A stretch of DNA of 59,712 nt from Chloroflexota bacterium (GTDB lineage Bacteria > Chloroflexota > Anaerolineae > Aggregatilineales > Phototrophicaceae): contig JBCBMS010000017.1 of the NCBI GenBank assembly GCA_039822165.1, positions 1 to 59,712 of the forward strand, given 5' to 3'. This document shows positions 8,389 through 49,836 of the stretch, piece after piece. Every line of letters begins with the position of its first letter. Within the stretch, counting starts at the first letter, position 1. The notes beneath the pieces were generated by a model. That model was not told the origin of the DNA. It did not search any database and saw only the letters and a list, made by a program, of their open reading frames with translations. The position numbers were made by a program, and so were the translations under genes.

Positions 8389-8422
8389 GTAGGGGCTTAA
8401 TTCATTAAGCCCCTACTTTTAT
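8389..8422 (+). terminator. Rho-independent terminator formed by a 28-nt GTAGGGGC...GCCCCTAC palindrome followed by TTTT
   Basis: gtaggggcttaat-tc-attaagcccctac + ttttat; member of the dispersed palindrome family. Confidence 0.7.
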
Positions 8423-8450
8423 CTGCAAATTAGACTGACTACAACACCAT

Positions 8451-10310
8451 ATGACTGACCAGACCCTGCCACAGAACACATTTGACGCCCCTTATGACGA
8501 GGAAATGGAACGCGCCATTCTCGGTTCGGTGTTGATTAACCCGTCTGTTTTCCTGTCGATTGCGTCGTTCCTCCAGCCAGACGACTTTTTCATTCTGCGC
8601 CACCGTTACATCTGGGAGGCGTTCGGGCACATTTCGTTGCGTGGCGAACCGATTGAACGGCAGACCGTGCGCCGCCAGCTACAGGACATGGACTTCTATG
8701 AGGCCGTTGGCGGGGACGTGTACCTCTCCGAACTGACGAACAGCACCTCATCTGCCATCTATGCCGAACACTACGCCCAGCTTGTGGAGCGCGACGCCGT
8801 GCGCCGCCGCCTGCTCATCGCCAGCGACGAAATCCGGGGCATTGCCACCGACCGCGATAAGTCGCTGGAAGAAGTAATTGGCGATGCGGAAAGCAAACTG
8901 TTCGCCGTCAGTGAGCGCCGCACCCAGCGCGATGTGGTCTCCATGCGAGAGGCCACCAGCCGTTACTTCGAGCGGATTGAGCAGATGATGCAGAGCCAGC
9001 AGCGCGGGCTGGGCCTGCCGACCGGCTTCAAAAAGCTGGACGCGCTCCTGGGTGGGTTGCAGCGCAGTGACCTGCTCATCTTTGCCGGACGCCCCGGTAT
9101 GGGCAAGACGTCGTTTATGCTCTCGCTGGCACTCAATGCCGCACAGCAGTTCGGCGCACGGATTCTGGTTTTCTCGCTGGAAATGGGCGTGGAGCAGATG
9201 GTGCAGCGTATGGTGAGCATGGAAACGGGCATCAACATGCAGCGTTTGCGCACGGGCCAGTTCGAGCAGCACGAGCAGCGGTTACTGGTGGAAGCATTAG
9301 GCCGTCTGAGTACGCAGCGCATCTTCCTGGACGATTCGCCATCGCTGAACCCGATCCAGATGCGAACCAAATGCCAGCGCATCAAGCACGAGCATGGCCT
9401 GGACCTGGTGGTGCTGGACTACATGCAGTTGATGCACGCGCCGGGGTTCACCAACAACCGCGTCCAGGAGATCAGTTACATCAGCCGCCACATGAAAGAA
9501 CTGGCCCGCGAGATGAACGTGCCTCTGCTCAGTGCCGCGCAGCTATCTCGCGCTGTGGAACAGCGTGCAGACAAGCGCCCACAGTTGAGCGACCTGCGCG
9601 AGTCTGGCTGTTTAACCGGGGAGTCGCTGGTGTGGCTGCCAGATGCAGGCCGCTACGAGCGCATGGATGCGCTGTGTGGGCAGTCGGGCTTCCGGGTGAT
9701 GAGCCTGAACCCTGACACTTACAAACTGGAAGCCGCCACTGTAACGAATGCGTTCAGCACCGGGGTAAAGCCCGTGTTCAAGTTGCAAACCGCGCCAGGA
9801 CGCAGTGTGCGTGCCACAGCAAATCACAAATTCCTGACGATAGAGGGCTGGAAGCGTCTGGATGAACTGGTAATCGGGGAACGCATCGCAACCCCGGCGG
9901 ACAGAGCAGGCTCTGTCCCTGCACAGGCGCTCACAATGGCTGTAGGGACGCACAACGGCGCGTCCGCCATGAAAACCACCATACTGCCAACCGACGTGAC
10001 ATGGGCCGCCATTACCGCGATAGAACACGATGGCGAAGAAGCCGTCTACGATCTGACCGTACCCGCACATAGCAACTTCGTGTGCAACAACATCGTCGTT
10101 CACAACTCCATTGAGCAGGACGCCGACATTGTGATGTTCCTGTACCGCGACATTGTGTACAACGAGGCGACCGAATACCCGAACCAGGCCGATGTCATCG
10201 TCGCCAAGCACCGCAACGGCCCCACAGACGTGATCCCACTGTACTTCGACTCCACCATCACGCGCTTTATGGACGGCACGCGGCAGTCCGTGGATTTGAG
10301 CACGATGTAA
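8451..10310 (+). CDS. dnaB: replicative DNA helicase DnaB containing a mini-intein
   Basis: DnaB N-terminal domain, Walker A GRPGMGKTS, Walker B LVVLDYMQL; extein junction RESG|C...VVHN|SIEQDADIV. Confidence 0.95.
   Translation: MTDQTLPQNTFDAPYDEEMERAILGSVLINPSVFLSIASFLQPDDFFILRHRYIWEAFGHISLRGEPIERQTVRRQLQDMDFYEAVGGDVYLSELTNSTSSAIYAEHYAQLVERDAVRRRLLIASDEIRGIATDRDKSLEEVIGDAESKLFAVSERRTQRDVVSMREATSRYFERIEQMMQSQQRGLGLPTGFKKLDALLGGLQRSDLLIFAGRPGMGKTSFMLSLALNAAQQFGARILVFSLEMGVEQMVQRMVSMETGINMQRLRTGQFEQHEQRLLVEALGRLSTQRIFLDDSPSLNPIQMRTKCQRIKHEHGLDLVVLDYMQLMHAPGFTNNRVQEISYISRHMKELAREMNVPLLSAAQLSRAVEQRADKRPQLSDLRESGCLTGESLVWLPDAGRYERMDALCGQSGFRVMSLNPDTYKLEAATVTNAFSTGVKPVFKLQTAPGRSVRATANHKFLTIEGWKRLDELVIGERIATPADRAGSVPAQALTMAVGTHNGASAMKTTILPTDVTWAAITAIEHDGEEAVYDLTVPAHSNFVCNNIVVHNSIEQDADIVMFLYRDIVYNEATEYPNQADVIVAKHRNGPTDVIPLYFDSTITRFMDGTRQSVDLSTM
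9609..10106 (+). other. mini-intein (166 aa, no homing-endonuclease domain) inserted at the RESG/SIEQD site of DnaB
   Basis: Begins Cys (CLTGESLVW), contains TANHKF (block B T..H), ends VVHN followed by Ser; same insertion site as the Synechocystis DnaB mini-intein, recalled from memory and not checked here. Confidence 0.85.
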
Positions 10311-10355
10311 TCTGTATTGTCCCCGGCGCAGCGGACATTTATACTGTGGGTAGCT

Positions 10356-10428
10356 GCCCCCGTAGCTCAGTGGATAGAGCGCGGGACTCCTAAGCCCGGC
10401 GTCACAGGTTCGATTCCTGTCGGGGGCA
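10356..10428 (+). tRNA. tRNA-Arg (anticodon CCT)
   Basis: Cloverleaf by eye: acceptor GCCCCCG/CGGGGGC, D-arm GCTC-AGTGGATA-GAGC, anticodon loop CTCCTAA, T-arm ACAGG-TTCGATT-CCTGT; A31-G39 mismatch. Confidence 0.75.
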
Positions 10429-10444
10429 CACGCCACACTTCCAT

Positions 10445-10517
10445 GCATCCGTAGCTCAGTGGATAGAGCGCGGGACGCCTGAACCCGGCGTCACAGGTTC
10501 GATTCCTGTCGGGGGCA
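10445..10517 (+). tRNA. tRNA-Arg-like paralog with non-canonical anticodon loop CGCCTGA (G33, G37) and imperfect acceptor stem; possible pseudo-tRNA
   Basis: Same D/T arms as copy 1; acceptor GCATCCG vs CGGGGGC (1 mismatch + GU). Confidence 0.5.
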
Positions 10518-10530
10518 CACGCCACACTAT

Positions 10531-10603
10531 GCATCCGTAGCTCAGTGGATAGAGCGCGGGACGCCTGAACCCGGCGTCACAGGGTCGATTCCTGTCGGGG
10601 GCA
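10531..10603 (+). tRNA. tRNA-Arg-like paralog (loop CGCCTGA); possible pseudo-tRNA
   Basis: Near-identical to 10445..10517; T-arm ACAGGG-TCGATT-CCTGT. Confidence 0.5.
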
Positions 10604-10615
10604 CACACTTCGCCT

Positions 10616-10689
10616 GCACCCTGTAGCGCAGTGGATAGAGCACGGGACGCCTGAACCCGGCGTCACAGGGTCGATTCCTGTCGAGGGCA
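10616..10689 (+). tRNA. tRNA-Arg-like paralog (loop CGCCTGA), most degenerate copy; possible pseudo-tRNA
   Basis: D-stem GCGC/GAGC and acceptor with mismatches; 3' end CGAGGGCA. Confidence 0.4.
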
Positions 10690-10705
10690 AACGCCACACT
10701 TCCAT

Positions 10706-10778
10706 GCATCCGTAGCTCAGTGGATAGAGCACGGGACGCCTGAACCCGGCGTCACAGGGTCGATTCCTGTTGGGGGCA
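10706..10778 (+). tRNA. tRNA-Arg-like paralog (loop CGCCTGA); possible pseudo-tRNA
   Basis: Same unit as copies 2-3; followed by terminator. Confidence 0.5.
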
Positions 10779-10786
10779 TACACTGA

Positions 10787-10809
10787 ACCGGGTATGCTGC
10801 CCGGTTTTA
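10787..10809 (+). terminator. Rho-independent terminator closing the tRNA array
   Basis: ACCGGG-tatgctg-CCCGGT followed by TTTT. Confidence 0.75.
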
Positions 10810-10856
10810 TTGTATACTCTGGTGACCCGTTATGAACCACAGTAAGGTGATACCAC

Positions 10857-11219
10857 ATGGCCGAAATTGACTGGACGCAGTGGATGAATCAACTTGATCG
10901 ACTGCCGGAAGATGCCCACCTTTCGCGTGCGCAGATGTCTGAGGACGATGTGAAGCTAAAGCAAATGTGGACGTGTGCATTTCCAGACGGGTTGAGTCAT
11001 GCTGAAGTGCTGCAACTCATTCACCTGCTGTACAACGAATATGGGTACGGTTTCAGACCACTCGCGCATGATGTTGGTATCGTGCTCAGGGTCAACTACG
11101 TCTATGTGTTGAATGAAGTCTATGGTGTGCACGAAATTGAACCTGATCCAGAAGTACAGAATAGACTCAGGGTAAAGATGGTAGACTGTGGCTATGTCGA
11201 ATGGATGTCTGAGGAATAG
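10857..11219 (+). CDS. hypothetical protein (AT-rich islet gene 1)
   Basis: 120-aa ORF, lower GC than surroundings, no recognisable motif. Confidence 0.55.
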   Translation: MAEIDWTQWMNQLDRLPEDAHLSRAQMSEDDVKLKQMWTCAFPDGLSHAEVLQLIHLLYNEYGYGFRPLAHDVGIVLRVNYVYVLNEVYGVHEIEPDPEVQNRLRVKMVDCGYVEWMSEE

Positions 11220-11222
11220 ATC

Positions 11223-11423
11223 ATGGCTTTTGAACGAATCACAATCGACCCGGCGAAAATGGGCGGTGTGTCCTGTATACGCGGATTGCGTATACCCGTA
11301 GCAACCGTAGTAGATATGGTTGCAGCGGGGATGTCCACAGATGAGATTCTGGCAAATTTTCCTGACCTCGAACTTGAAGACATTACTGAAGCCCTGCGCT
11401 TTGCATCAGTAGTTCTCCGATAA
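11223..11423 (+). CDS. DUF433 family small protein (antitoxin-like HTH)
   Basis: 66 aa; pattern IRGLRIPV..V.......G.S.DEIL..FPDLELEDI..AL.FA matches DUF433 consensus from memory. Confidence 0.6.
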   Translation: MAFERITIDPAKMGGVSCIRGLRIPVATVVDMVAAGMSTDEILANFPDLELEDITEALRFASVVLR

Positions 11424-11444
11424 TGGTAGTTACCGCAGATCACG

Positions 11445-12101
11445 ATGCACAACATTACTGACAAGGATGACCTTGTAGCTACTATTGAGAAACTGTACGC
11501 GGTATTCAACAAATACCCCTTACGTTCATGGATATCGGGTAATACCAAACAGCGGGCAAGCAAAATACATGCCTTGCGAGCCGTAACGCTTGATGATTTG
11601 TTCGAAAATGATATAGATCACTACTATCTTGATTCGGAGACATTTCGCGGACTGTTTCCACGAATATGTGAAATGATCGCGTTTGAAGATCTACATGACT
11701 TCGAGTTGGGTTACAACTTGAGACTGTCTGTACTTTCTGAGAAGCATTCATGGGAGGATTGGCCGTCAGAGGAACAGGATGCGATCAATACCTATTTGAT
11801 GGCATTGTGGAAATACTTGCCTTCTGTAAAAACGCCAGACTTTGAGCACTTCGTTGAAGTGGCATCAGACATAAATTGCGTGGTCAGCGACCTAACGCCT
11901 TATATAAGGGTGCTTCAGGACAGATGTAGCAATGTTCTGGGTGTCAGGTATCTGGCTGCATGTGTAATTGAAGGTTCTTTTGGCAAGCGCCTATCACAAC
12001 AATCTTTTGTGCTGCCATTGCTTGAAAAAACTTACTATGAACACATTGATACCCCGATAGGTGAAGAAATGGCACGAGCAGTCAATGCCATCGAAAAGTA
12101 G
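11445..12101 (+). CDS. hypothetical protein (AT-rich islet gene 3)
   Basis: 218-aa ORF, AT-rich codon usage, no recognisable motif. Confidence 0.55.
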   Translation: MHNITDKDDLVATIEKLYAVFNKYPLRSWISGNTKQRASKIHALRAVTLDDLFENDIDHYYLDSETFRGLFPRICEMIAFEDLHDFELGYNLRLSVLSEKHSWEDWPSEEQDAINTYLMALWKYLPSVKTPDFEHFVEVASDINCVVSDLTPYIRVLQDRCSNVLGVRYLAACVIEGSFGKRLSQQSFVLPLLEKTYYEHIDTPIGEEMARAVNAIEK

Positions 12102-12138
12102 GCTTGCATTATTTATGTTTGCTCCAACTGTGAGTTGC

Positions 12139-12168
12139 TTGACAACAACCGTCGTGCTGATGTACAGT
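12139..12168 (+). promoter_or_regulatory. sigma70-like promoter (TTGACA-18-TACAGT) upstream of the sugar ABC operon
   Basis: Motif match by eye about 34 nt upstream of the 12202 start codon. Confidence 0.35.
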
Positions 12169-12201
12169 CACGTAAACGATTACATTCATTGAAATTACAC
12201 A

Positions 12202-12981: not shown

Positions 12982-12984
12982 CGC

Positions 12985-14041: not shown

Positions 14042-14066
14042 GTAGGGGCGAGGCCATGCCTCGCCC
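14042..14066. repeat. REP-like palindrome (degenerate copy) after permease gene
   Basis: gtaggggcgaggc-cat-gcctcgccc. Confidence 0.5.
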
Positions 14067-14190
14067 AACACACTAACCCGGATTCACGTCAATAGGAGGT
14101 GACCCACCACAACCACACACAAATATAGAGTCTGGCACAGGTATCCGACGCATTTTTTACCAGATTATTTTTACAGGAGACATTGATCCA

Positions 14191-16035
14191 ATGAACAAGA
14201 ACATCCTCCGTATACTGATAATTGTTTCGCTGCTTGCAGTAACCGCGTTCGCGGGTGTATCCGCCCAGGATGACACGATCAAGATCGGCGCACTGACCAA
14301 AAACCTGAGCAACGAGTTCTTCGTCGCAATGGCCAACGGCTACGAGTGGGCCGGTGAGCGTTATGACATCGAGATTGTGGTGGGCAGCACCCCGACTGAA
14401 AACGCCGCCGAAGAACAGCTTGCTATACTCGAAGGCTGGCTGACCGAAGGGGACTTCGATGGTTTTATTGTCACGCCGTTCCGCGCCACCAGCCTGAACA
14501 GTGGTCTTGCCGCCGCGACCGAAGCTGGCATCCCGATCATCAACATGGACGAGATCATCCCGGCAGACGCTGCGGCTGACAGCGGTATCGAAATCGCTGC
14601 CCGCATCTCATCCAACAACGTGCGCGGCGGCGAGTTCGCAGCGAACTATGTTGTCGCCAACGTGGATGAGGGCGCACAGGTGGCCGTGATTGAAGGCGCA
14701 CCGGGCACGACCTCCAGCATTGACCGCGTGACCGGCTTTGCGGATACCGCAACCGCCGGTGGCCTCGAAGTCGTCGCCAGCCAGCCCGCGAACTGGGATC
14801 GTGCTGAGGCGTTCAACGTCGCCACCAACATCCTCCAGTCCAACCCGGACGTGCAGGCAATTTTCGCGGCCAATGACGGGATGGGCCTGGGTGCTGTAGA
14901 AGCGATTGAAGCCGCTGGTATGGCCGATAGTGTGATCGTTGTCAGTGTGGACGCGATTCCAGAAGCACTGGCTGCTGTGGAAGAAGGCCGCCTGGCCGGT
15001 ACCGTGGCGCAGTACCCGGATGAGATGGCTGTTCTGGGTGTGGAAGCCATGCTCAAGGCCATTAATGGCCGCCCGATTGCCCCGCAGATTGAGTCCCCGG
15101 TTGTACTGATTACCGGTGAGAACCTGGACGTGGCAGGCAGCCAGCTTGGTGATGCTGCCATTGGCGAATACAAGATCGGTGGCCTGACGAAGAACCTGAG
15201 CAACGAGTTCTTCCTCGCTATGATCGAAGGGTATGAGATGGCCGCCGCTGACCTCGGCGTAGAAGTGGTGACCGGCAGCACCCCGACCGAAAACGCCGCC
15301 GAAGAACAACTTGCCGTCCTCGAAGGCTGGATCAACGAGGGCGATTTTGACGGCTACGCGGTAACACCGTTCCGTGCCACCAGCCTGAACAGCGGCCTCG
15401 CAACCGCAACTGAAAACGGTACGCCGATCATTAACCTGGACGAACTGATCCCGGCAGATGCTGCGGCTGATAGCGGCCTGAACATCGCGCAGCGCATCGC
15501 GTCCAATAACGTGCGCGGCGGCGAGTTCGCAGCCAACTACGTGCTTTCCGCCGTGGATGCTGGCGCACAGGTCGCCGTGATTGAGGGCGCACCGGGCACC
15601 ACCTCCAGTATTGACCGCGTCACCGGCTTTGCCGATACCGCCACTGCTGGTGGCCTGGACGTGGTTGCCAGCCAGCCCGCCAACTGGGATCGTGCTGAGG
15701 CGTTCAATGTGGCTACCAACATCCTCCAGTCCAACCCGGACGTACAGGCAATCTTCGCCGCCAATGACGGTATGGGCCTGGGTGCTGTAGAAGCGATTGA
15801 AGCGGCTGGTATGGCCGATAGTGTGATTGTCGTCAGTGTTGACGCGATCCCGGAAGCACTTGCCGCTGTGGAAGAAGGCCGCCTGGCCGGTACGGTTGCG
15901 CAGTTCCCGGATGAAATGGCTTACCTGGCCGTTGAGGGTATGATTAAAGTCATCGAAGGCCGCCCGGTTGCGCCGTTCATGGAATCACCCGTGATGCTCA
16001 TCACGTCCGATAACCTCGGTATGATGATGGAATAA
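14191..16035 (+). CDS. periplasmic sugar-binding protein with two tandem, near-identical type-I PBP domains
   Basis: Signal peptide; two ~299-aa repeats each starting IGALTKNLSNEFF / IGGLTKNLSNEFF and ending RP(I/V)AP..ESPV(V/M)LIT. Confidence 0.85.
   Translation: MNKNILRILIIVSLLAVTAFAGVSAQDDTIKIGALTKNLSNEFFVAMANGYEWAGERYDIEIVVGSTPTENAAEEQLAILEGWLTEGDFDGFIVTPFRATSLNSGLAAATEAGIPIINMDEIIPADAAADSGIEIAARISSNNVRGGEFAANYVVANVDEGAQVAVIEGAPGTTSSIDRVTGFADTATAGGLEVVASQPANWDRAEAFNVATNILQSNPDVQAIFAANDGMGLGAVEAIEAAGMADSVIVVSVDAIPEALAAVEEGRLAGTVAQYPDEMAVLGVEAMLKAINGRPIAPQIESPVVLITGENLDVAGSQLGDAAIGEYKIGGLTKNLSNEFFLAMIEGYEMAAADLGVEVVTGSTPTENAAEEQLAVLEGWINEGDFDGYAVTPFRATSLNSGLATATENGTPIINLDELIPADAAADSGLNIAQRIASNNVRGGEFAANYVLSAVDAGAQVAVIEGAPGTTSSIDRVTGFADTATAGGLDVVASQPANWDRAEAFNVATNILQSNPDVQAIFAANDGMGLGAVEAIEAAGMADSVIVVSVDAIPEALAAVEEGRLAGTVAQFPDEMAYLAVEGMIKVIEGRPVAPFMESPVMLITSDNLGMMME
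14263..16020 (+). repeat. ~897-bp tandem direct duplication (2 copies, estimated >85% nt identity) inside the binding-protein gene
   Basis: Repeat units begin near 14266 and 15163; protein repeats nearly identical. Confidence 0.8.
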
Positions 16036-16059: not shown

Positions 16060-16087
16060 GTAGGGGCATGGCATGCCATGCCCCTAC
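16060..16087. repeat. REP-like perfect 28-nt palindrome GTAGGGGCATGGCATGCCATGCCCCTAC
   Basis: Perfect self-complementarity; 25 nt after stop of binding-protein gene. Confidence 0.7.
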
Positions 16088-16157
16088 AGATGAATATGGG
16101 GGACGCGCGTTGTTGTCCCCCCTTTTTGTACCTGCATAGCACACACAGGAGAACAAC

Positions 16158-21211: not shown

Positions 21212-21265
21212 GCACAATCGTTTTTGCAAGAGCCTACAAATGACCCGGATGAGGGCAAGAAACTT

Positions 21266-22576
21266 ATGACAGGATTGTTCATTATAGTGGGTGTGGTGGC
21301 TGTGGTCGCCGCAGTCATGATGTTGCTCAGCGACAACGCGGTGCACAGTGCGCTGTTCTTGATTCTGAACTTCGCGTGTGTCGCGTTTTTCTATCTGATG
21401 TTAGATGCCCCGTTCCTGGCAATGGTGCAGATTGCCGTCTATGCGGGCGCGATCATGGTGTTGTTCCTGTTCGTGATCATGTTGCTCGGCGCGGAACAGG
21501 CGGAATCCATTGTGTCGGTCTCCGCAGGGCTGCCCGGTTCCCGCCGCTACACCATCGTAGCGGCTGCGCTGGCACTGGTTCTGCTGGTGACGGTCGGGTT
21601 CGCGCTCACTGGCGACACAATTGACGACATTGAACCGACGGCTAACCCGGTCGTACGGGTCGTTCACGGAGCCGCAACAGTGAGCCGCGCAGACATCGAA
21701 CTGGACGGCATCGTCATTGCAGAAGATGTTGTCTACGGCGAAGTCACCCGCATGCTGGAAATCGCCCCCGGTGACCACGAGGTCGTGGTATTCGATTCGG
21801 AGACTGGCGAGGTGATTCAGTCCGGCACACTGGCCATCGAAGCGCCAGAAACGCCCAACACGGTGATGACCGTACTGGTCTACGATACCTACGAGACGCT
21901 CATCAACAGCGGCGAGGCCACACAGGCACTTACCGCGTTCGAGCAGGATTTGAACCCGCCGACCGGTGATTATGCCCGCGTGACAGTGTTTAACGGTCTT
22001 GGCCAGCCCATCAGCTTCCACGATACCGGTGTGTTCGGGCGCACGGGAGATACGTTCGTGTATGCATCTGACCTGGCACCGGGTACCGCCAGTGACGCCC
22101 TGTTGCTGGATGAGGGCCGTTATCGCTCACTGCGGGTGGTGCGCCCCGCCGATGAAGAAGCGGACGACGGTGCAGGCGAACCACTGCTCACCATCCCGGA
22201 GCACACGTTTGAAACCAGTTCCGTGGTGCTGATGATGGTTAACGCGGTGCCCAATACCGAGTTCCCGACCATCCGCTACAGCGTGACGGAAACACTGGCC
22301 ACGTTCGGTAGCCCACAGGCTGTGGGGCAACGCCTGTTCGTGGAATACCTGCTGCCGATGCAGCTTGTGGCACTGGTGCTGCTGGCCGCACTTGTTGGCG
22401 TTATCGTCATTGCGCAGCGCCAGGTGGAACCATCCGCCGCTCGTCAGAGCGCTGCTCGTCGTCCGGTTCGCCGCCGCGTGAGCCGCCCGCTGGCCAGTGT
22501 GATTACCAGCCAGGTGGCACCCGACGCGCCAGATGGCACACAACTGAAGTCCGGCGACGAACCCGCTGGGGACTGA
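21266..22576 (+). CDS. nuoJ: NADH-quinone oxidoreductase subunit J with ~280-aa inserted soluble beta-rich domain between TM4 and the last TM helix
   Basis: N-terminal NuoJ TM1-4 (AVYAGAIMVLFLFVIMLLG), C-terminal YLLPMQLVALVLLAALVGVIVIA; central DUF4397-like repeats. Confidence 0.8.
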   Translation: MTGLFIIVGVVAVVAAVMMLLSDNAVHSALFLILNFACVAFFYLMLDAPFLAMVQIAVYAGAIMVLFLFVIMLLGAEQAESIVSVSAGLPGSRRYTIVAAALALVLLVTVGFALTGDTIDDIEPTANPVVRVVHGAATVSRADIELDGIVIAEDVVYGEVTRMLEIAPGDHEVVVFDSETGEVIQSGTLAIEAPETPNTVMTVLVYDTYETLINSGEATQALTAFEQDLNPPTGDYARVTVFNGLGQPISFHDTGVFGRTGDTFVYASDLAPGTASDALLLDEGRYRSLRVVRPADEEADDGAGEPLLTIPEHTFETSSVVLMMVNAVPNTEFPTIRYSVTETLATFGSPQAVGQRLFVEYLLPMQLVALVLLAALVGVIVIAQRQVEPSAARQSAARRPVRRRVSRPLASVITSQVAPDAPDGTQLKSGDEPAGD

Positions 22577-22615
22577 CCCTTACTGGAAACCGTGATGCCG
22601 CGCATTGAATCGTAC

Positions 22616-22636
22616 GGGTGAGGCCATGCCTCGCCC
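22616..22636. repeat. REP-like hairpin after nuoJ
   Basis: gggtgaggc-cat-gcctcgccc. Confidence 0.45.
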
Positions 22637-22673
22637 ACATGATGCGCCTGCACCTTAATTATCAGGAGAATTC

Positions 22674-22991: not shown

Positions 22992-23027
22992 CACTGCAAC
23001 GGCGGGTTGTAACGTGGGTAGGGGCGT

Positions 23028-23055
23028 AGCGCGTTGCGCCCCTACGACAAACGGT
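23028..23055. repeat. REP-like 28-nt palindrome GTAGGGGCG...CGCCCCTAC after nuoK
   Basis: gtaggggcgtagcgcgttgcgcccctac. Confidence 0.6.
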
Positions 23056-28737: not shown

Positions 28738-28758
28738 ACGCCAGATTGCCACAAATTG

Positions 28759-28784
28759 CAGGGACGTAGCATGCTTCGTCCCTG
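28759..28784. repeat. REP-like palindrome (variant of the 32850 element) between convergent nuoN and DHFR-family gene; followed by TTTG
   Basis: cagggacgtagcatgcttcgtccctg. Confidence 0.6.
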
Positions 28785-28796
28785 TTTGCGTCTGGC

Positions 28797-30316: not shown

Positions 30317-30343
30317 GTAGGGGCGAAGACTATGCCTTGCCCC
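30317..30343. repeat. REP-like degenerate palindrome
   Basis: gtaggggcgaag-actatg-ccttgcccc + ttt. Confidence 0.45.
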
Positions 30344-30345
30344 TT

Positions 30346-31125
30346 TCAATTAGGATCGGTAAATTTTTCTAGTTGTACAAATCCTTCTTCAGGATTAAAT
30401 TTTGTTCCATCCGGCAGAATCGTCTCACCATCTAGTTTGGTGTAATATTCCCTTGGAACCATGTTGCCATCAACGTAACCTGAAATTGTAATATTTTCTC
30501 GTATGTTTGATCCCTTCAGATTACAGTTTTTTAAATTTGTGCCTCTTAAATCCGCCACTATTAAAGCACCCTCTAAATCCGCCCACCACAATCGTGCCTC
30601 TTGTAATTCTGTTCCAATCAACCTCGCGTGTCTCAAGTCTGTTTTAGTCAGATCAGCATTAATCAAATGTGTTTCAAGTAAAAATGTGTCGCTTAGGTTT
30701 GCGTATCTAAAATCAGCCCCATTAAGATTTGCCCCCTGAAGATGATGTTTACCGCTTAACACCCCGTTTGGACCTACTAACAGATTTTCATATTGCATTT
30801 CTTCAACCGCAACTTTAGCCGTTGTGTTATCTCGGCTACCAGCACGCCTGATAAATTGTTGTTCCTTTTCCTTTCTTACGCGGCGACGATTGAGTACATC
30901 TATAATTCCAACTGCTGCAATGATGCTCAGTATCTCCATCAGTAGGCTCATCATGAATTCGTTATTCACGCGGGGTTGACTGCCATTGAATAGAATGAAT
31001 CCAGCAATCAGGCCAATCATCAACATGATGGAACCCCAGAATAGCGGGGTTTCTGTAATCATTTTGATGCCTTCTTTGCGGGCATTATCGGAACGTGCTT
31101 CTGCTGCCTCAAATCCATTTGCCAT
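30346..31125 (-). CDS. membrane-anchored pentapeptide-repeat protein (AT-rich gene)
   Basis: N-terminal TM helices, C-terminal A(D/N)L..(A/T) pentapeptide repeats. Confidence 0.75.
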   Translation of the reverse strand: MANGFEAAEARSDNARKEGIKMITETPLFWGSIMLMIGLIAGFILFNGSQPRVNNEFMMSLLMEILSIIAAVGIIDVLNRRRVRKEKEQQFIRRAGSRDNTTAKVAVEEMQYENLLVGPNGVLSGKHHLQGANLNGADFRYANLSDTFLLETHLINADLTKTDLRHARLIGTELQEARLWWADLEGALIVADLRGTNLKNCNLKGSNIRENITISGYVDGNMVPREYYTKLDGETILPDGTKFNPEEGFVQLEKFTDPN

Positions 31126-32461: not shown

Positions 32462-33916
32462 CTACGGGCTGCGGATAATTTCCTCTAGCGTACTGTGCGC
32501 GAACTGCTCCACCACCTCAAACGTCGCGTCATCAAACGCGGGATCGAGTGCAATCAGGTCGTTGAGTAACCGTTCGCGCTCTGCGTCGCTGTGATAGTAA
32601 ATCAACACCTGCGCCCGGTCACTTTCCGGCCTGTTTTCCGTGTCGATCCCATGAAAACCTTCGTAGTAGCGCACAGTATAGTTACTCGGATAGCTGTATG
32701 CCAGCGAATCAGAGCCGGTGATGTTCTCTGCAAAGTAAAACGCGGCTATCTCTGCATCTTCGGCAATACCCGTTTCCGGTGACGTGATAATCACGCCGGT
32801 GCGCACAGTATGCGCCGCCACGCCGATAACAAAAACAATCGCAATACCTGTAGGGACGTAGCATGCTACGTCCCTACCCTGACGACTGCAAAAACGCTCC
32901 GTCAAAAACACAATCCCCGCGCCCACCGTCATGAAGTAAATCGGCATCAACGACGACACAATGCGCGGGTATGGGAACACCCGCTGCACCAGCAGTGCCA
33001 GCGTCACCCACACCAGCGCCGTCACCAGCGGAGCCACACTGTACGGCGACCGCGACCGGTGGGTGACCAGTCCAGCGACGGCTGCAAACCCCATCACCGC
33101 CGCCGTGACTGTCGTAAACGGTAGCCACTGATGCGCCCATGCGAAAAAGCCAGCATAGTTCTCGTAGAAGCGCGGGTAATACTCACCGGGTGGAACCGGC
33201 TGCACAAACGGGTTGTTTATCAGCCGATCCAGTCCACTGAACATCATCACCGGCACGTAGAGAATCAGCGTCAGCACGGCGCCCAATCCGATGCCTACGA
33301 CATAGTTCTTTAGCAGCACGCGCCGCCGATACCCCGCGTTATCGAACCAGATGGACAGCAGCAACCACAGTGCCACCGCGCCCATCGGATACAGCATCGT
33401 CGGTATCGTGAGGAAGCCAAGCGCAGACAACAGCGCAAACCACAGCCACTCATTGTTGCGGTTCTTTTCCAGCAAGCGCTGGCCCAGCCAGAACAGCATC
33501 AGCGTAATGAGTACCTGCAAACTGTAGCCCCGTGCATTCACGCTCATATCCAGCAGTGACGGTGACACCGCTACTATCGCCGCCGCCAGCAAGCCTGCCC
33601 CGCGCCCGTAGAATTTTCGTCCCACCTCATACGCGAACGGGATCATCACCACACCGGGAATCCACGCGGCCATGCGCAGGATCACCGGGTGGTTGCCGAA
33701 CACCAGCCACGCCACATGCGCCAGCAAGGAGTGAAAGATGTGGTTGTTTGGCTCAGAGTAGTTGGCCATGATAGACGGCATATTGGTGGAGACGTACTCT
33801 ATGAAGCTCAACGCCTCGTCAAAGCGCATGCTGCGGTCAAAGTAACGGACGCGCAGCCAGTACCCCACCAGCATCATCGCCAGCAGCACCCCATTGTGTA
33901 ACCATCGTCCGCGCAT
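32462..33916 (-). CDS. ArnT/PMT-like (GT39/GT83-type) membrane glycosyltransferase; contains an in-frame palindromic element
   Basis: 484 aa polytopic; N-terminal RMAAWIPGVV..AAIVAVSPSLLDMSVNARGYS pattern of dolichyl/undecaprenyl-phosphate sugar transferases. Confidence 0.7.
   Translation of the reverse strand: MRGRWLHNGVLLAMMLVGYWLRVRYFDRSMRFDEALSFIEYVSTNMPSIMANYSEPNNHIFHSLLAHVAWLVFGNHPVILRMAAWIPGVVMIPFAYEVGRKFYGRGAGLLAAAIVAVSPSLLDMSVNARGYSLQVLITLMLFWLGQRLLEKNRNNEWLWFALLSALGFLTIPTMLYPMGAVALWLLLSIWFDNAGYRRRVLLKNYVVGIGLGAVLTLILYVPVMMFSGLDRLINNPFVQPVPPGEYYPRFYENYAGFFAWAHQWLPFTTVTAAVMGFAAVAGLVTHRSRSPYSVAPLVTALVWVTLALLVQRVFPYPRIVSSLMPIYFMTVGAGIVFLTERFCSRQGRDVACYVPTGIAIVFVIGVAAHTVRTGVIITSPETGIAEDAEIAAFYFAENITGSDSLAYSYPSNYTVRYYEGFHGIDTENRPESDRAQVLIYYHSDAERERLLNDLIALDPAFDDATFEVVEQFAHSTLEEIIRSP
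32850..32877. repeat. perfect 28-nt REP-like palindrome GTAGGGACGTAGCATGCTACGTCCCTAC located in-frame inside the glycosyltransferase CDS (encodes GRDVACYVPT)
   Basis: Perfect self-complementarity; near-identical copy in intergenic position at 28759. Confidence 0.75.
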
Positions 33917-36370: not shown

Positions 36371-36473
36371 CCTGCACCTGATGCGAAGATAATGTTGTAG
36401 TAGTAGGATATGGGTAGTAAACGGGGCGGTGACTTTCACTGCCCCGTTAATATTGTCAACAATAAGGACTCAC

Positions 36474-38073: not shown

Positions 38074-38324
38074 ACGGCCACTGGCTGCAAAATCGCCTCA
38101 AACTGGCGCGGGTTAATCTGGCGGGCAATGTCGCTATCCGGCGCGAACCGGCGATACTCCTGTACCGCCTGTATCAGCAGCATTACCACGTCATGATCCA
38201 TCGGCGTTAGCCCGTGGCGGACGGTGACGGCGGTGTGTATGTCAATGCCGTGCGGGATGAGCGCGTTCAGCGTGATTTCCGGGAGGTAAAGGGTGTTGTT
38301 GGTAATGTAAGGTGCGTAGTTCAT
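38070..38324 (-). CDS. hypothetical small protein (convergent, 4-nt overlap)
   Basis: 84-aa ORF only. Confidence 0.3.
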   Translation of the reverse strand: MNYAPYITNNTLYLPEITLNALIPHGIDIHTAVTVRHGLTPMDHDVVMLLIQAVQEYRRFAPDSDIARQINPRQFEAILQPVAV

Positions 38325-38551
38325 GGGTCTTTGCCTGCTTGAATGAAAACTGTTCCATGCAAAGCAGTGTACCCCGGTTTTCGTACATTAAACTGTATAA
38401 ATTCATTAAAAGAATATCAAAAATGTAAAGTATGGTGGCCTGTAACAAACCGGTTGAACTGGTAAGAAGATACTTACCTGACGCAATAAAACGATAGATT
38501 CCAGGTAAAATAAACTCACCAATCATCAAGCAGCTATTATGTGACAGTGCC

Positions 38552-39295
38552 GTGAATCTCATTGACGCGATACTCAAATCCTATGTTGTTTTACGCCGCC
38601 AGGGCCACCCCCCGCTGGAAGCCCTTGAGAAACTGCGCCCGCGCATAGAAGGTATGAGCGCCCGCGACAAGGGCCGCATTGTAGCCGGGGTGCGCTACTA
38701 CGAACAGCAGGTGAAAAAACGCCGCGCGGCTATCGCCGGGCGTGGCACGGCCACCACGACTACCACTACAAAAACTGCTACCAGTGGAACCCCGTCCATC
38801 TGCGAGAACTGCGGCACGCTAAACTGGAACAACCAGGCGCAGTGCCGCAAGTGTGGCGCCCCGCTTATCTCTCGTCAGGCAGGTTCCCGGATGATGACGC
38901 GCCGCCTCGGCAACGAAGACAACCAGCGCAGCGAAGAGTTCCGACCGGATACCACGCTGATTTTGCGCATGCCGGAGCAAAAAGCCGTGATAGAACTGTG
39001 CCCACAGGACTTTGACCGTAGCCTCATCTTCGGGCGGTTCGATCAGTCCGGCGGCATTATACCGGATGTGGATTTAGAGGAATATGGTGGGGCAGAACGC
39101 GGTGTTTCGCGGTTGCATATGGCGCTCGCCTATGACGCCCGTCGCAACCACCTGAGCGTGAAAGACATGGGCAGTGCCAACGGCGTCATCGTCAATGGGC
39201 GTCGCCTGCCATCGTTCGATACCCACATCCTGCGCAGCGGTGACCGGATCGAACTCGGCAACTTCCTTATTCAGATTGTCTACGCCCACAATTAA
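38552..39295 (+). CDS. FHA domain protein with N-terminal zinc-ribbon
   Basis: CENCGTLNW...CRKCGAP zinc ribbon; C-terminal FHA (GR...VSRLHMAL...NGVIVNGRRL). Confidence 0.75.
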   Translation: MNLIDAILKSYVVLRRQGHPPLEALEKLRPRIEGMSARDKGRIVAGVRYYEQQVKKRRAAIAGRGTATTTTTTKTATSGTPSICENCGTLNWNNQAQCRKCGAPLISRQAGSRMMTRRLGNEDNQRSEEFRPDTTLILRMPEQKAVIELCPQDFDRSLIFGRFDQSGGIIPDVDLEEYGGAERGVSRLHMALAYDARRNHLSVKDMGSANGVIVNGRRLPSFDTHILRSGDRIELGNFLIQIVYAHN

Positions 39296-40959: not shown

Positions 40960-42147
40960 ATGTCATCCACGCGGCATAATGCCACAAAAAACAGGCACCC
41001 GCCCATGTTCCACATCCCCTACCTGGATACCAACCCCATCGCACAGGCCGAGTACCGACGGCTGCGCCACACCAATACCCTCTCGCGGGGGCATACGGTG
41101 GTGTTTGCGCTGGTTTACCTGCTGATTGTGCTGGTGGCGTTCTCGCCGTATGTCTACTACATCACGCCGCGGCGCGTTAGCTGGCTGGCGGTGATAGCCA
41201 TTGTCGTGTTCGGGTTTCAGGTCTACGTCACGCTGCGCACGGCAGCCGTGATTACGTCCGTGCCACTGCCACAGACCGAGTTACTGACCATCACGCCGAT
41301 GAGCCGCTGGCGGCTGGTGGTGGGCAAATGGTGGGGCGCGTTCAGAACGGTGTGGGTGTGGCACCTGCTCACGGCAATTCCGAAGGTGGGGTTATCACTG
41401 GGCGTGATGAACTATATGCATTTACAGACAGTGTATACAATGCCAGTGTTCACCAACGGAACTTTGCGACTGCTAGCTTTCCCATACATCTACATCAGCC
41501 ATAACTACCATGCTCGACAGATTTATCCAATGGGATGGATAGTTGTAATTGTAATCTTATTCAGTCTGCATTTTGCGATCTGGGATTCTACAATGTTTGC
41601 GGCTATGGCAACTCTCGTGAGTTCTGCTTACTCCAATACACTATTGACACGCTTGCTTATTTTCCGGGGAGTGTTGTTCGCATTTGTGATCTTATCCAAC
41701 CTGACCATCGGATACATCGACCACAATTATATTCGACAGTACAACATAATTCCCTCGTATCACATTCTCAAACAGAATGAATTTATTGAAGAATGCGTGG
41801 AAATCTTCTACAAAGAATACAGAGATGATTGCGCTAGCTGGTATGTCCATAAACAATACACACGCGCTATGGAGACACACCTCATAGCATCCAACTCATT
41901 TATCGACAACGGCATCATGCTACACGCGAATATGATGCGCCCTATCCCATACAGCAAAGTTTCCAGCAGCCAGTGTTTCTGGCTGGAATTGTGTGAGGGA
42001 ACATATGATCCATGGTGGTATGAAACTCTACGAATAAGTCACCTGCAATTTCTGCTGCGGCACATGGCAAGCGCCGCCTACGGGATGTTTCTACACGTGA
42101 TGCTCACGCTGGGGTTTCTGTGGCTGGCGGCGCGGCGGCATCCATAG
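40960..42147 (+). CDS. hypothetical polytopic membrane protein (AT-rich 3' half)
   Basis: 395-aa ORF, multiple TM segments; alternative start 41005. Confidence 0.5.
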   Translation: MSSTRHNATKNRHPPMFHIPYLDTNPIAQAEYRRLRHTNTLSRGHTVVFALVYLLIVLVAFSPYVYYITPRRVSWLAVIAIVVFGFQVYVTLRTAAVITSVPLPQTELLTITPMSRWRLVVGKWWGAFRTVWVWHLLTAIPKVGLSLGVMNYMHLQTVYTMPVFTNGTLRLLAFPYIYISHNYHARQIYPMGWIVVIVILFSLHFAIWDSTMFAAMATLVSSAYSNTLLTRLLIFRGVLFAFVILSNLTIGYIDHNYIRQYNIIPSYHILKQNEFIEECVEIFYKEYRDDCASWYVHKQYTRAMETHLIASNSFIDNGIMLHANMMRPIPYSKVSSSQCFWLELCEGTYDPWWYETLRISHLQFLLRHMASAAYGMFLHVMLTLGFLWLAARRHP

Positions 42148-42169: not shown

Positions 42170-42196
42170 GGCGGACATGCAGAAGCATGTCCCTAC
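42170..42196. repeat. REP unit (GGCGGAC arm ... GTCCCTAC), minus orientation, part of an inverted REP doublet
   Basis: ggcggacatgc-agaa-gcatgtccctac. Confidence 0.6.
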
Positions 42197-42222: not shown

Positions 42223-42248
42223 GTAGGGACGGCCTTCTGGCCGTCCGC
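42223..42248. repeat. REP unit (GTAGGGAC ... GTCCGC), plus orientation, partner of 42170..42196 (REPIN-like pair between convergent genes)
   Basis: gtagggacggcc-ttct-ggccgtccgc. Confidence 0.6.
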
Positions 42249-42263
42249 AATAAAAGCCCTGCA

Positions 42264-42911
42264 CTAAATACTGCGTCCGGTTTCTGCTGTGCCGGTAGCG
42301 GTGGCCGCCGGGGTGACGGTGGGCAGTGGCGTGACGGTATCTGTGGGCGGTGTGGTCGCGTCCGGGTCAATTGTCGGCGTCGGTAGCGGGGTGCTGGTTA
42401 CTGTCGGCGTGATCGGCGTCACGGTGGGCAGCGGCGTGGGCGAGATCGTCGGTGACGGAGTGGGAGCCAGCGGCTCAATCGTGTCGTTGCGCATGTAGGC
42501 TTCGTCAATGCGGCGCGTGTCCGTGTTCAGGTCGATGAGGTACCAGTCGGTGTCGCCCACGCGCTCAATCACGCACATAATGCGCCCACCCACCGCAGAG
42601 TCAATCACGGCGGCCTCTACAGACGGTGAGCGGCGCACATTGGCTGTGGGCACACTCACAATCCAGTCCTCGCACGCCGGGATGGGTGTAAATGTGGGGA
42701 ACAATGTGCGGGTGGGGTCGGCTTCCGTGGCGCGGCGCACAGAGGCCGTGGTAGCGACCACTGCCGCCTGCTCTGTTGCTGCATCCACGCCCAGGCCGCC
42801 TGTCGCCAGGTAGGTTTGCAGGCCCAGCCACAGGTAGTAGCTGCCCAGCACGAACGCCACACTCAGCAAAAAGATTAACCACGCCGGGATACCCCGCCTG
42901 CGCCTGTACAC
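42264..42911 (-). CDS. membrane-anchored protein with Pro/Thr-rich C-terminal low-complexity tail
   Basis: N-terminal TM; C-terminal PTPSPTISPTPLPTVTPITPTVTSTPLPTPT. Confidence 0.55.
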   Translation of the reverse strand: MYRRRRGIPAWLIFLLSVAFVLGSYYLWLGLQTYLATGGLGVDAATEQAAVVATTASVRRATEADPTRTLFPTFTPIPACEDWIVSVPTANVRRSPSVEAAVIDSAVGGRIMCVIERVGDTDWYLIDLNTDTRRIDEAYMRNDTIEPLAPTPSPTISPTPLPTVTPITPTVTSTPLPTPTIDPDATTPPTDTVTPLPTVTPAATATGTAETGRSI

Positions 42912-45027: not shown

Positions 45028-45028
45028 G

Positions 45029-46738: not shown

Positions 46739-46846
46739 AATAATCTCGTTAAAACCACGTAATATGCAGGAATTGTAATATGTCTGATGTTCGTCATGAT
46801 TGTAACGCACTTTTGATGTCGTGTACGATTAGTATTGGCAATATCT

Positions 46847-47965: not shown

Positions 47966-48015
47966 CACAGATCGGGCGGGGCACGGCCTCGCCCTCACAA
48001 CACAGGAATTGACCT

Positions 48016-48405
48016 ATGACTACCGTGGAACTCCGTCCCATTGACCGGGACAACTACAGACAGGCCACAGCGCTGACGGTTGCACCGGAGCAAGAAAATT
48101 ACGTCGCGCCGAACCTCAATTCACTGGCCGATGCCTACGTGTGGTATGACATTGCCCGCTGCGATGGTATTTTCGCCGGGGAGGAGATGGTCGGGTTCAC
48201 CATGTACACGAAGAAGCCGACCGAAAGCGGCAAGTGGATCATCGTGCGCTACATGATCGACCACCGGCAGCAGGGGAAGGGCTATGGCCGCGCCGGGTTG
48301 AACAAACTCATTGAGCAGTTCAAGGCCCAACTTGGCTGCGACCGCGTGTATCTCTCGGTGATACCGGAAAACGTGGCGGCGAAATCACTTTACGAAAGCG
48401 CCTGA
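48016..48405 (+). CDS. GNAT family N-acetyltransferase
   Basis: 129 aa; Q/RxxGxG/A acetyl-CoA motif (HRQQGKGYGRAG). Confidence 0.75.
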   Translation: MTTVELRPIDRDNYRQATALTVAPEQENYVAPNLNSLADAYVWYDIARCDGIFAGEEMVGFTMYTKKPTESGKWIIVRYMIDHRQQGKGYGRAGLNKLIEQFKAQLGCDRVYLSVIPENVAAKSLYESA

Positions 48406-48469
48406 TTCAAAGCCACCGGTGAAATCCACAGTGGCGAGGCGGAGTACGTGCTGGTGTTTTGACCCGTAG

Positions 48470-48853
48470 TTACTGCCGCTTTTGCCAGCGCTCATAGGCA
48501 GGCCGTGCTTTTGCGATGATTTCGGCATCGCCGTGGGTTTGCAGGGCGGCCCACGTGCGCGGATACGCATCCGCTACATCGAACTTGCGCTCCAGTGAGT
48601 AGGCCACCGCGTTAAAGTCCAGCCGCCCCTCTGCCGCCGCTTCGATGGCGGGTTCGATGGTGCGCGGGTCGCGGGTGGCAATCAGCACCTCATAGGCGGC
48701 TTTGCGCACACTGCGCAGCGGGTCATTTAACGCAGCCAGCAGGGGCGGCACCGCCTCCAGGGAACCGCTCTGGCCGAGCGCGATGGCCGCCTGTTTGCGC
48801 GTTTCTTCGTCGCCGTCGCGGAGCTGTGCGGCAAGCTGTTCGATGTCTGCCAT
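48470..48853 (-). CDS. HEAT-repeat protein
   Basis: RKQAAIALGQSGSLEAVPPLLAALNDP...VRKAA HEAT/PBS-lyase-like repeats. Confidence 0.65.
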   Translation of the reverse strand: MADIEQLAAQLRDGDEETRKQAAIALGQSGSLEAVPPLLAALNDPLRSVRKAAYEVLIATRDPRTIEPAIEAAAEGRLDFNAVAYSLERKFDVADAYPRTWAALQTHGDAEIIAKARPAYERWQKRQ

Positions 48854-48971
48854 GTGTGCTGCCTCCCTTGAATTCAGAAAAAATTCGTCCGAAATGCGTA
48901 AATTCTACCCCGATCCACAATACGAAGCGTTATAATCAAAGCACTTCGCCTACCAGACTGGAACTGACCCT

Positions 48972-49757
48972 GTGGATTCTAACACGAAAGCTCAGATGAA
49001 AGAGGCCCGCGACCGGATTCGCGGCGGGCACTACGATGAAGCCCGCGCCATTCTGCTGTACATTCGGCACCCGACTGCCCGTGAGTGGCTGGAAAAGCTG
49101 GAACAACTCGACCCATCCGGCAGCGCAGATTCCCTGGCACAGCGACCGACGAAACGCGACAGCGGCCTCAGCCCGGTGGCGATTGGTGTGCTGGCCGTGG
49201 GCGTGGTCGTGTTCGTCGCGGCTATTGTGCTGATGGTGACGGGAACACTCTCGAATTTGTCCGGGTTTTCATTCAATTCCGAGCCGGCCCCGGCGACTAT
49301 GCTGCGTTTCGATCACCCGCAGGTGGCCTTCAGCTACCCGGACACGTTGCAGTTACAGGACGCTTCGCAGCACCCGGATTGTGACCTGCCGCTGGAGTGC
49401 GCGGCCTGGCTGACGGATAGCCGCCGGGATGCGCATGTGCTGGTGAGTTCAATCACCATTCCGCTCCAGATTATCGACTACAGCAGCGACGAACTGGAGC
49501 GGGCGTTGATGCGCTTTGTGCGTGATGGCGTGGCGGGTGAGGAGTTTATCTCGCGCGGGCTGGTGGATGTGGGTGAGGGCCGCTACGAGGCCATCCGGCG
49601 GGAGATGTACTACCCCACCGGCGGCTATGAAGTCACCTACCTGATTACGTTTGAGGGGCGGGCCTACTTCGTGTGGTACCTCGCCAGCTCTGAGCGCGAT
49701 CTTAACCGCTATATGGCCGACGCCGAGATGGTCGCCAATACGCTGCTCATCAAGTAG
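48972..49757 (+). CDS. hypothetical membrane-anchored protein
   Basis: 261-aa ORF with one central TM segment. Confidence 0.5.
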   Translation: MDSNTKAQMKEARDRIRGGHYDEARAILLYIRHPTAREWLEKLEQLDPSGSADSLAQRPTKRDSGLSPVAIGVLAVGVVVFVAAIVLMVTGTLSNLSGFSFNSEPAPATMLRFDHPQVAFSYPDTLQLQDASQHPDCDLPLECAAWLTDSRRDAHVLVSSITIPLQIIDYSSDELERALMRFVRDGVAGEEFISRGLVDVGEGRYEAIRREMYYPTGGYEVTYLITFEGRAYFVWYLASSERDLNRYMADAEMVANTLLIK

Positions 49758-49789
49758 GGTGGGGCGGACGCCAGAATTGGCGTCCCTAC
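49754..49789. repeat. REP unit (ends ...GTCCCTAC), minus orientation
   Basis: gtagggtggggcggacgcc-agaatt-ggcgtccctac. Confidence 0.6.
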
Positions 49790-49809
49790 GCAAAATACAG
49801 GTTCATGCT

Positions 49810-49836
49810 GTAGGGACATGCTTCTGCATGTCCGCC
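49810..49836. repeat. REP unit (GTAGGGAC...GTCCGCC), plus orientation; with 49754..49789 forms an inverted doublet between convergent genes
   Basis: gtagggacatgc-ttct-gcatgtccgcc. Confidence 0.6.

Follow-up and report, generated by a model that had tools for sequence, protein, structure and literature searches.

GTAG palindromes dispersed over a Chloroflexota contig are probably REP elements of the RAYT subclass 2.4 kind

Positions 1–59,712 of contig JBCBMS010000017.1 of a Chloroflexota bacterium (assembly GCA_039822165.1) were analyzed from end to end; 'the window', below, means this whole stretch of 59,712 nucleotides (nt). It carries a dnaB gene that contains a mini-intein, nuo genes arranged as an operon, a glycosyltransferase gene of the PMT_2 family and many others, and scattered among these—mostly just beyond stop codons, occasionally within coding sequence—are short palindromes headed by GTAG. 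An initial annotation of the sequence took these palindromes to be repetitive extragenic palindromic (REP) elements of the sort mobilized by REP-associated tyrosine transposases (RAYTs, also called TnpA-REP), and so they have turned out: the 28-nt copies correspond to the 'double foot' REPs, and the doublets to the 'canonical long' REPs, of an earlier survey (PMC6006769), and the same 28-mers occur in and around RAYT genes elsewhere. We consider it probable that they belong to the GTAG superfamily of REPs and represent two forms linked to RAYT/TnpA-REP subclass 2.4, and that they are mobile hairpin substrates of an HUH/Y1 enzyme. What identifies them as REPs is the excess of the motif over chance, the stability of the hairpins, their placement at gene 3' ends or in frame, the covariation of their stems, and their association with RAYT genes in other genomes.

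The elements and their neighbors

Four exact matches to GTAGGGRC-N12-GYCCCTAC are present in the window (8389, 16060, 23018 and 32850), compared with 0.00 in 100 dinucleotide-preserving shuffles, and if up to three mismatches are allowed the count is eight, compared with 0.45 expected by chance. The family as a whole comprises 11 loci and 14 REP units, eight of them singles and the other six arranged as three head-to-head doublets (Table 1), which amounts to roughly one locus per 5 kb over the 59.7 kb for which copy number is known. The degenerate singles (14042, ~22613–22640, 28758 and 30317) are genuine hairpins with damaged heads or an indel; the doublets lie at 9896–9922/9942–9968, 42170/42223 and 49762/49810. 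Most of this inventory had been anticipated. Three perfect 28-mers (8389, 16060 and 32850) were correctly placed by the initial annotation, but the fourth, put at 23028, begins at 23018; the degenerate copies, reported near 14042, 22616, 28759 and 30317, are there when the sequence is read; and the doublets given as 42170/42223 and 49754/49810 are real, except that the left unit of the latter begins at 49762, what lies at 49754 being an extra GTAGGG. The doublet at 9896–9968 was overlooked.

The two forms are built differently. Singles are symmetric—GTAG-GGGC, a paired center, then GCCC-CTAC—so that GTAG pairs with the 3' CTAC. Doublet units are asymmetric, GTAG-GGAC-N12-GTCC-GCC, with the GTAG unpaired, and they face each other head to head across spacers of 19–26 nt; within each doublet the foot and the base of the stem are common to both units, and the 12-nt centers are unlike. 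The copies in these 60 kb have at least five types of center. The GTAG foot is kept in 6 of 8 singles and 5 of 6 doublet units, and is mutated in 22613, 28758 and 9896. A covariance model made from 85 distinct 28-mers finds all 11 loci and 14 units again, and flags four weak GGGGC...GCCCC hairpins without a GTAG head as well (203–222, 36423–36445, 47974–47994 and 55208–55230; E 0.5–5), each found shortly past a stop codon, which may be decayed or variant REPs and are individually not significant.

An assembly artefact is unlikely: the 28-mers at 16060 and 23018 are matched by two in the Logan assembly of sequencing run SRR22824292, the contigs of which encode proteins identical to those of the window, and the motif is found in isolate genomes, too. 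Integron attC sites, CRISPR repeats and DDE-type miniature inverted-repeat transposons (MITEs) were ruled out on the 28-nt length, the housekeeping neighbors, the lack of arrays, and flanks without visible direct repeats. A scan of the window with Rfam returned tRNAs only.

Genes were mapped as long open reading frames (ORFs) with coding-like GC content at third codon positions, together with Pfam searches, and 9.9% of the window is intergenic by this map. Nine of the 11 loci are intergenic nonetheless (binomial P = 4e-8), and every one of the nine lies 1–84 nt past a stop codon; the gap is unidirectional for six of them and convergent for three, and the window's eight divergent gaps contain none. 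The earlier statement that almost all copies lie 10–60 nt after stops thus stands for these nine, with a wider range, but not for the REP at 32850 and the 9896–9968 doublet, which are in frame inside the PMT_2 glycosyltransferase ORF and DnaB, respectively. At 49754, the extra GTAGGG supplies the TAG that terminates ORF 48972–49757.

The DnaB protein (8451–10310) includes a mini-intein at residues ~386–555 (Pfam Intein_splicing, residues 396–552), closely related to the solved cyanobacterial DnaB mini-inteins 4o1r, 6frh and 1mi8. Alignment to such structures puts the doublet between the two splicing subdomains, where it encodes PADRAGSVPA...VGTHNGASA in the intein linker; this stretch has no counterpart in 4o1r, a DnaB intein chain of 142 residues that aligns as two blocks, one on either side. 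The linker that the REP dimer occupies is the usual place of a homing endonuclease domain.

The nuo genes allow a comparison between species. The junction of nuoK and nuoL is 94 nt long in the window, REP included, and 6 nt long in a relative (GCA_964438955.1; locus L123) with 60% identity in NuoJ; the nearest relatives of the window genome share 60–63% protein identity with it. The relative has a REP of its own at 263–283 of the locus, a 21-nt double foot (GTAGGGGCG-CTG-CGCCCCTAC) between two upstream genes of the nuo operon whose products match Pfam 2Fe-2S_thioredx and Complex1_51K. Because this REP is only 21 nt long, the N12 search pattern must catch just part of the family. The two sets of junctions are consistent with REP turnover, the direction of which cannot be set at 60% identity. 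NuoJ of the window (21224–22576) has an inserted DUF4397 domain, an architecture common to hundreds of Chloroflexota/Anaerolineae homologues.

Table 1. REP units of the window, with one possible relative
Element	Position	Strand	Remarks
Double-foot REP	8389–8416	.	Perfect 13-bp stem GTAGGGGCTTAAT/ATTAAGCCCCTAC; DNA hairpin -11.4 kcal/mol, z -6.4; stop of BFN-domain gene 84 nt before, dnaB 34 nt after; T-run 3' (only copy with one)
Canonical REP, left doublet unit	9896–9922	-	GGCGGAC-N12-GTCCCTGC; head mutated to CTGC; in frame, DnaB mini-intein
Canonical REP, right doublet unit	9942–9968	+	GTAGGGAC-N12-GTCCGCC; in frame, DnaB intein linker
Degenerate double-foot REP	14042–14069	.	GTAGGGGCGAGGC-CAT-GCCTCGCCC-AAC; right foot damaged; permease gene stop 16 nt before
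Double-foot REP	16060–16087	.	Perfect 14+14; 24 nt past stop of ORF 14191–16035; 42.9 bits
Degenerate copy	22613–22640	.	GGGTGAGGC-CAT-GCCTCGCCC; center as in 14042; head lost, one G-T pair; nuoJ/nuoK gap
Double-foot REP	23018–23045	.	Feet perfect, two G-T pairs in center; nuoK/nuoL gap
Degenerate copy	28758–28785	.	GCAGGGACGTAGCATGCTTCGTCCCTGT; center type as in 32850; convergent gap past nuoN; E = 5e-4
Degenerate copy with indel	30317–30344	.	GTAGGGGCGAAGACTATGCCTTGCCCCT; 1 nt past stop of minus-strand pentapeptide-repeat gene
Perfect double-foot REP	32850–32877	.	In frame inside ORF 32462–33916(-), PMT_2 glycosyltransferase; encodes GRDVACYVPT
Canonical REP, left doublet unit	42170–42196	-	22 nt past stop of ORF 40960–42147
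Canonical REP, right doublet unit	42223–42249	+	26-nt spacer; 14 nt from stop of convergent ORF 42264–42911(-)
Canonical REP, left doublet unit	49754–49789	-	REP proper 49762–49789; extra GTAGGG in front at 49754
Canonical REP, right doublet unit	49810–49836	+	20-nt spacer; doublet foldable as one long hairpin
Possible headless relative	55208–55230	.	GGGGCGCAG-CCGAT-CTGTGCCCC; 9 nt past a stop, convergent gap; E 0.5–5

Hairpins, covarying centers and RAYT genes in other genomes

Stems measure 9–14 bp in elements 28 nt long. Folded as single-stranded DNA, the singles lie well below shuffled sequence, with energies between -6.6 and -13.2 kcal/mol (z between -2.8 and -7.1); the doublet at 49762–49836, taken as one long hairpin, reaches -22.9 kcal/mol. 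When 185,579 species genomes were scanned with the 28-mer pattern, at least 120 loci came to light; the 135 matches listed include two on the window's own Logan contig, and the figures that follow refer to these 135. They come from Chloroflexota (many), Cyanobacteria, Bacteroidota, Omnitrophota, Patescibacteria, Nitrospirota, Desulfobacterota, Binatia, Planctomycetota and others, and from surroundings with a local GC content of 32–73%. The center is paired, at five or more of its six positions, in 125 of the 135 (all six in 89, five in 36). A random 12-mer is fully paired 0.02% of the time, and with centers so regularly paired the matches beyond the window cannot be put down to chance. Beyond a pyrimidine bias at positions -2/-1, the sequences that flank them have nothing in common, and the 28-mer is therefore the whole unit; inspection by eye of the printed flanks, in place of a formal scan for target duplications, which was not made, revealed no direct repeats. 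Identical 28-mers recur in Cyanobacteria, Chloroflexota, Omnitrophota, Patescibacteria, Nitrospirota and other phyla, and the one at 32850 in the window is found unchanged in a cyanobacterial metagenome-assembled genome (L002). A full-text search of the literature for 'GTAGGGGC' turned up unrelated primer sequences only.

Centers vary and yet remain complementary to themselves, as the initial annotation had seen, and with 85 distinct 28-mers this can be expressed in numbers: 98.6% of cells are paired, compared with 81.8% in shuffles, and the covariation score, 0.458 compared with 0.114, was matched by none of 500 shuffles. Pairs 9–12 occur as three or four Watson–Crick types. There are biases, too—R at position 9, C at 13, R at 14—that give rise to apexes such as CATG or CGCG. 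Complementarity of the center is clearly constrained. The further claim, that this reflects selection on structure rather than copying and pasting, survives in part: covariation is strong, but identical centers appear in several copies and in distant phyla, and the window holds decayed copies. Center types are unevenly represented, moreover, a few recurring four to eight times, each in several phyla. The data are explained at least as well by a hairpin-requiring enzyme that amplifies discrete sub-types as by selection on structure, and the recurrence of identical sub-types alongside decayed copies (14042, 22613, 28758 and 30317) is what the birth and death of amplified sub-families would leave behind. 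Templated repair within the palindrome is another process that could restore perfect arms.

The pattern was also found in viral contigs of IMG/VR (L129–L248), at 120 loci or more, with a paired center in 100 of the 136 matches listed and no RAYT gene in the viral loci listed. One non-palindromic center, GCTCCGCCGCAGCTGC, recurs 13 times (both strands counted) among these matches and is probably a conserved segment of a phage gene.

All-against-all BLASTP of the 1,938 ORFs within 2.5 kb of a match produced one cluster that overlaps the motif, and it is the RAYT cluster; the remaining clusters comprise no more than five loci each, at a distance from the motif. At 4 of the 120 loci listed (L023, L036, L098 and L110), the 28-mer lies in frame inside a RAYT ORF (PNHxHG...WQRNYY), in which the motifs MPNHxHGI, GRGxxxxAPT and WQRNYYEHIIRD follow one another in that order. 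Such an ORF matches NCBIfam REP_Tyr_transpos ('REP-associated tyrosine transposase') with E = 1.6e-19 and 70.3 bits, under the curated cut-off of 80 bits, and matches Pfam Y1_Tnp weakly. The peptide R[GD]xxxx[AV]PT is present in 78 of the 120 best RAYT homologues, several of which are named 'RayT' by their sources. The tetrapeptide at the center of these inserts—TMHR, TLQR and TARR are the commonest—can be encoded by a perfect 12-nt palindrome in 69 of 82 cases, compared with 1.7% of all tetrapeptides, and it must be the DNA palindrome that is conserved, therefore, rather than the peptide. Diverged RAYTs retain a perfect in-gene palindrome even where no extragenic copy is nearby.

A RAYT gene flanked by two such repeats, which the initial annotation suggested looking for, does exist in other genomes: two loci (L252 and L254) have identical double-foot REPs before, inside and after the gene, and constitute a full REPtron. 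In-gene and flanking 28-mers are identical in L252, and in L023 as well. L252 (6001–6900) and L254 (6001–7240) encode the same RAYT protein and differ by a 341-bp tandem duplication of the gene's 3' half, at or near the ends of which there are double-foot REPs; the GTAG of one REP gives the RAYT gene its TAG stop.

Genes resembling subclass 2.4, with a perfect in-gene 28-mer, are also found between the specificity (Methylase_S) and restriction (HSDR_N/ResIII) genes of Type I restriction–modification operons (L126, 8745–13719; L127, 4898–13728; and L128), in Meiothermus ruber and a second genome. The RAYT gene overlaps both of its neighbors in L127 and L128 and the upstream gene in L126, and the operon of L127 includes SIR2 and DUF87 genes. 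In Atribacteria, a RAYT gene adjoins toxin–antitoxin, SNF2 and DUF1156 genes. This suggests that group 4 RAYTs, the equivalent of subclass 2.4 (below), are linked to defense islands.

Comparison with known systems

TnpA-REP subclass 2.4, the equivalent of group 4 of Bertels, was described by Quentin, Siguier, Chandler and Fichant (2018, PMC6006769), with the motifs HuH NH[IFV]H, WQ and YIxNNP. Its REPs are of two kinds, 'canonical long', with three G-C pairs at the base of the stem, and 'double foot', with GT[AG]G at the 5' end and C[TC]AC at the 3' end, and REPs in frame inside tnpA-REP are described for this subclass (PMC6006769). RAYTs of group 4 are frequent in Cyanobacteria, Chlorobia and Caldilineae, a class of Chloroflexi, and RAYTs are normally single-copy (Bertels et al. 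2017, PMC5581495). The elements of the window agree in having 5' GT[AG]G with 3' C[TC]AC, three G-C pairs at the bottom of the stem and canonical long REPs alongside, and in their patchy spread over Cyanobacteria, Bacteroidetes, Chloroflexi and other phyla. They differ in that the window has no cognate RAYT, that the canonical units form head-to-head dimers with differing centers, and that one of these dimers resides in an intein linker.

The GTAG superfamily of REPs, known from Chloroflexi among other groups, has complementary stem variants, G-T pairs and dimers; its members lie near 3' ends between unidirectional or convergent genes, can supply stop codons from their GTAG, and occur in frame in replication and repair genes (Di Nocera, De Gregorio and Rocco 2013, PMC3733652). 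The window presents much the same picture: a GTAG tag, stems of 6–13 bp with complementary variants, short loops, dimers 20–100 bp apart, 3'-end positions in unidirectional and convergent gaps, a TAG stop from GTAG, and intragenic copies in replication genes. What defines the superfamily is a GTAG left unpaired at one end, however, whereas the 28-mers of the window pair GTAG with CTAC; and the copies of the window are dispersed, unlike those of the one Chloroflexi family listed for it (T. roseum GTAG-23), which form clusters in blocks. As far as sequence goes, every feature of the window elements matches the descriptions in these three papers.

The REPINs of Pseudomonas and E. coli, which go with group 2/3 RAYTs, are likewise inverted pairs of REPs around a short spacer, able to fold into a single long hairpin as 49762–49836 can, but REPIN arms are near-identical (Bertels and Rainey 2011, PMC3116915), whereas the arms in the window share only foot and stem base, and the elements there are mostly singlets, instead. 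With the subterminal hairpins of the IS200/IS605 insertion sequences, recognized by the TnpA Y1 transposase, they probably have in common that they are single-stranded DNA hairpins for an HUH/Y1 enzyme, without target duplication. They are not the ends of insertion sequences, however, but stand-alone units of 28 nt, without cargo and with a RAYT-type GTAG foot.

How the elements might spread, and the alternatives

If the biochemistry of E. coli TnpA-REP and IS200/IS605 is a guide, an element would fold into a hairpin whenever its DNA becomes single-stranded. An HUH/Y1 enzyme might then read hairpin and GTAG foot together, and cut and rejoin the DNA, so dispersing copies, or maintaining them, without creating target duplications. 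Only sequences that retain the foot and a paired stem would serve as substrates, with the result that centers would co-vary and discrete sub-types would be amplified, and a double foot would offer the same substrate on either strand. Copies would persist where they do little harm: just past stops, in convergent gaps, and in frame in tolerant loops of proteins. Several things weigh against such a history, or at least weaken it. Neither a motif scan nor a hidden Markov model built from four RAYT ORFs finds a RAYT gene in the window, as the initial annotation, too, had reported, so that a cognate enzyme in this organism is hypothetical and its REPs may be orphans. That the elements have moved within this lineage at all we infer from sequence, with a nearest relative that has 60–63% protein identity; copy number is known for 60 kb alone; and the centers of the paired units differ, so the doublets are not clean REPINs.

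We think it unlikely that the hairpins are host RNA elements that arose in place at the 3' ends of genes—intrinsic terminators, or stem-loops that stabilize mRNA—and not mobile DNA. All nine intergenic loci are 1–84 nt past a stop, the stems are stable, and at 22613 and 23018 the G-T pairs on the sense strand would remain paired in RNA. Several copies had been taken for terminators at first, and the one at 8389 was indeed scored terminator-like, but it is the sole REP that was: it alone among the 11 loci is followed by a T-tract, and all the other REP loci fail an intrinsic-terminator scan. REP 16060 has behind it, 11 nt downstream, a separate GC hairpin with a T-run (16098–16121), as expected if the REP is part of the transcript and the true terminator comes after it. 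Efficient termination at REPs 22613 and 23018, in the gaps that separate nuoJ, nuoK and nuoL, would split the operon. The data do not support a function as terminators. A strand test of G-T wobbles for selection at the level of RNA was even (three sense, three antisense), and a role in RNA must contend, too, with two copies in frame inside genes and with 8-nt feet, and even whole 28-mers, that recur beside unrelated genes in many phyla and inside RAYT genes. Copies that are transcribed may nevertheless act as 3' hairpins in mRNA.

More credible, although still improbable, is the idea that the copies are orphan relics: a RAYT spread them and was since lost, and what we see are decaying remnants, the palindromes of which are kept by intrastrand templated repair, not by selection. 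Lost heads, indels or mismatches mark half of the eight singles as degenerate, there is no RAYT in the 60 kb, and five or more types of center in so short a stretch suggest a population that is old and diversified. The other four singles are perfect or have G-T changes only, however, the three dimers are intact, and that 60 kb should lack a RAYT means little, given that these genes are as a rule single-copy (PMC5581495). Very remote, by comparison, is the notion that the motifs are operator sites of a dimeric DNA-binding regulator, or MITEs of a DDE transposase. In favor, the 28 bp have perfect dyad symmetry, and their outer half-sites are conserved, but no copy is in a divergent or promoter gap; the center is free to vary provided that it pairs, which points to a folded strand, not to read-out of a duplex; 28 nt is far below known MITE lengths, and the flanks are without direct repeats on inspection; and the transposases with which the motif associates are of the Y1 kind, not DDE.

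Taking the elements to be RAYT-linked REPs, we can go one step further, tentatively. Double-foot REPs might be a limited set of 28-mer 'alleles' common to many phyla, and the in-frame copy within a RAYT gene might be the master from which new REP populations are seeded following horizontal transfer, the gene taking its own substrate along. The identical 28-mers in different phyla, the identity of 32850 with the cyanobacterial copy, the palindromes retained within genes, and the identity of in-gene and flanking copies in L023 and L252 all fit this idea, doubtful as it is.

Other features of the window deserve brief mention. At 10356–10778, four near-identical tRNA-Arg(CCT)-like genes stand in tandem; their Rfam scores fall along the array (64, 47, 42 and 39 bits), and ARAGORN accepts the first two only. 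Read from the printed sequences, copies 2–4 carry G where U is usual before the anticodon, and the T-stem has a mismatch in copies 3–4; copies 2–4 may be decaying duplicates. Three ORFs (10857–12101, 30346–31125 and 38242–38577), one of which encodes a pentapeptide-repeat protein, have a third-position GC content of 0.36–0.53, compared with ~0.7 elsewhere in the window, which suggests that they were recently acquired.

REPs of this kind, and their link to RAYTs, were already described in 2013 and 2018, and the window is a further Chloroflexota case. For annotation, it means that these loci should be marked as REP elements rather than as terminators or regulatory sites, and that two ORFs have peptide inserts that stem from REPs, namely the dnaB intein and the glycosyltransferase. 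For the family, it provides a REP-rich example from the Chloroflexota of the little-studied RAYT subclass 2.4 system. The 28-mers common to many phyla, the palindrome within RAYT genes, and the presence of RAYTs in Type I restriction–modification operons sharpen the question of what role group 4 RAYTs perform.

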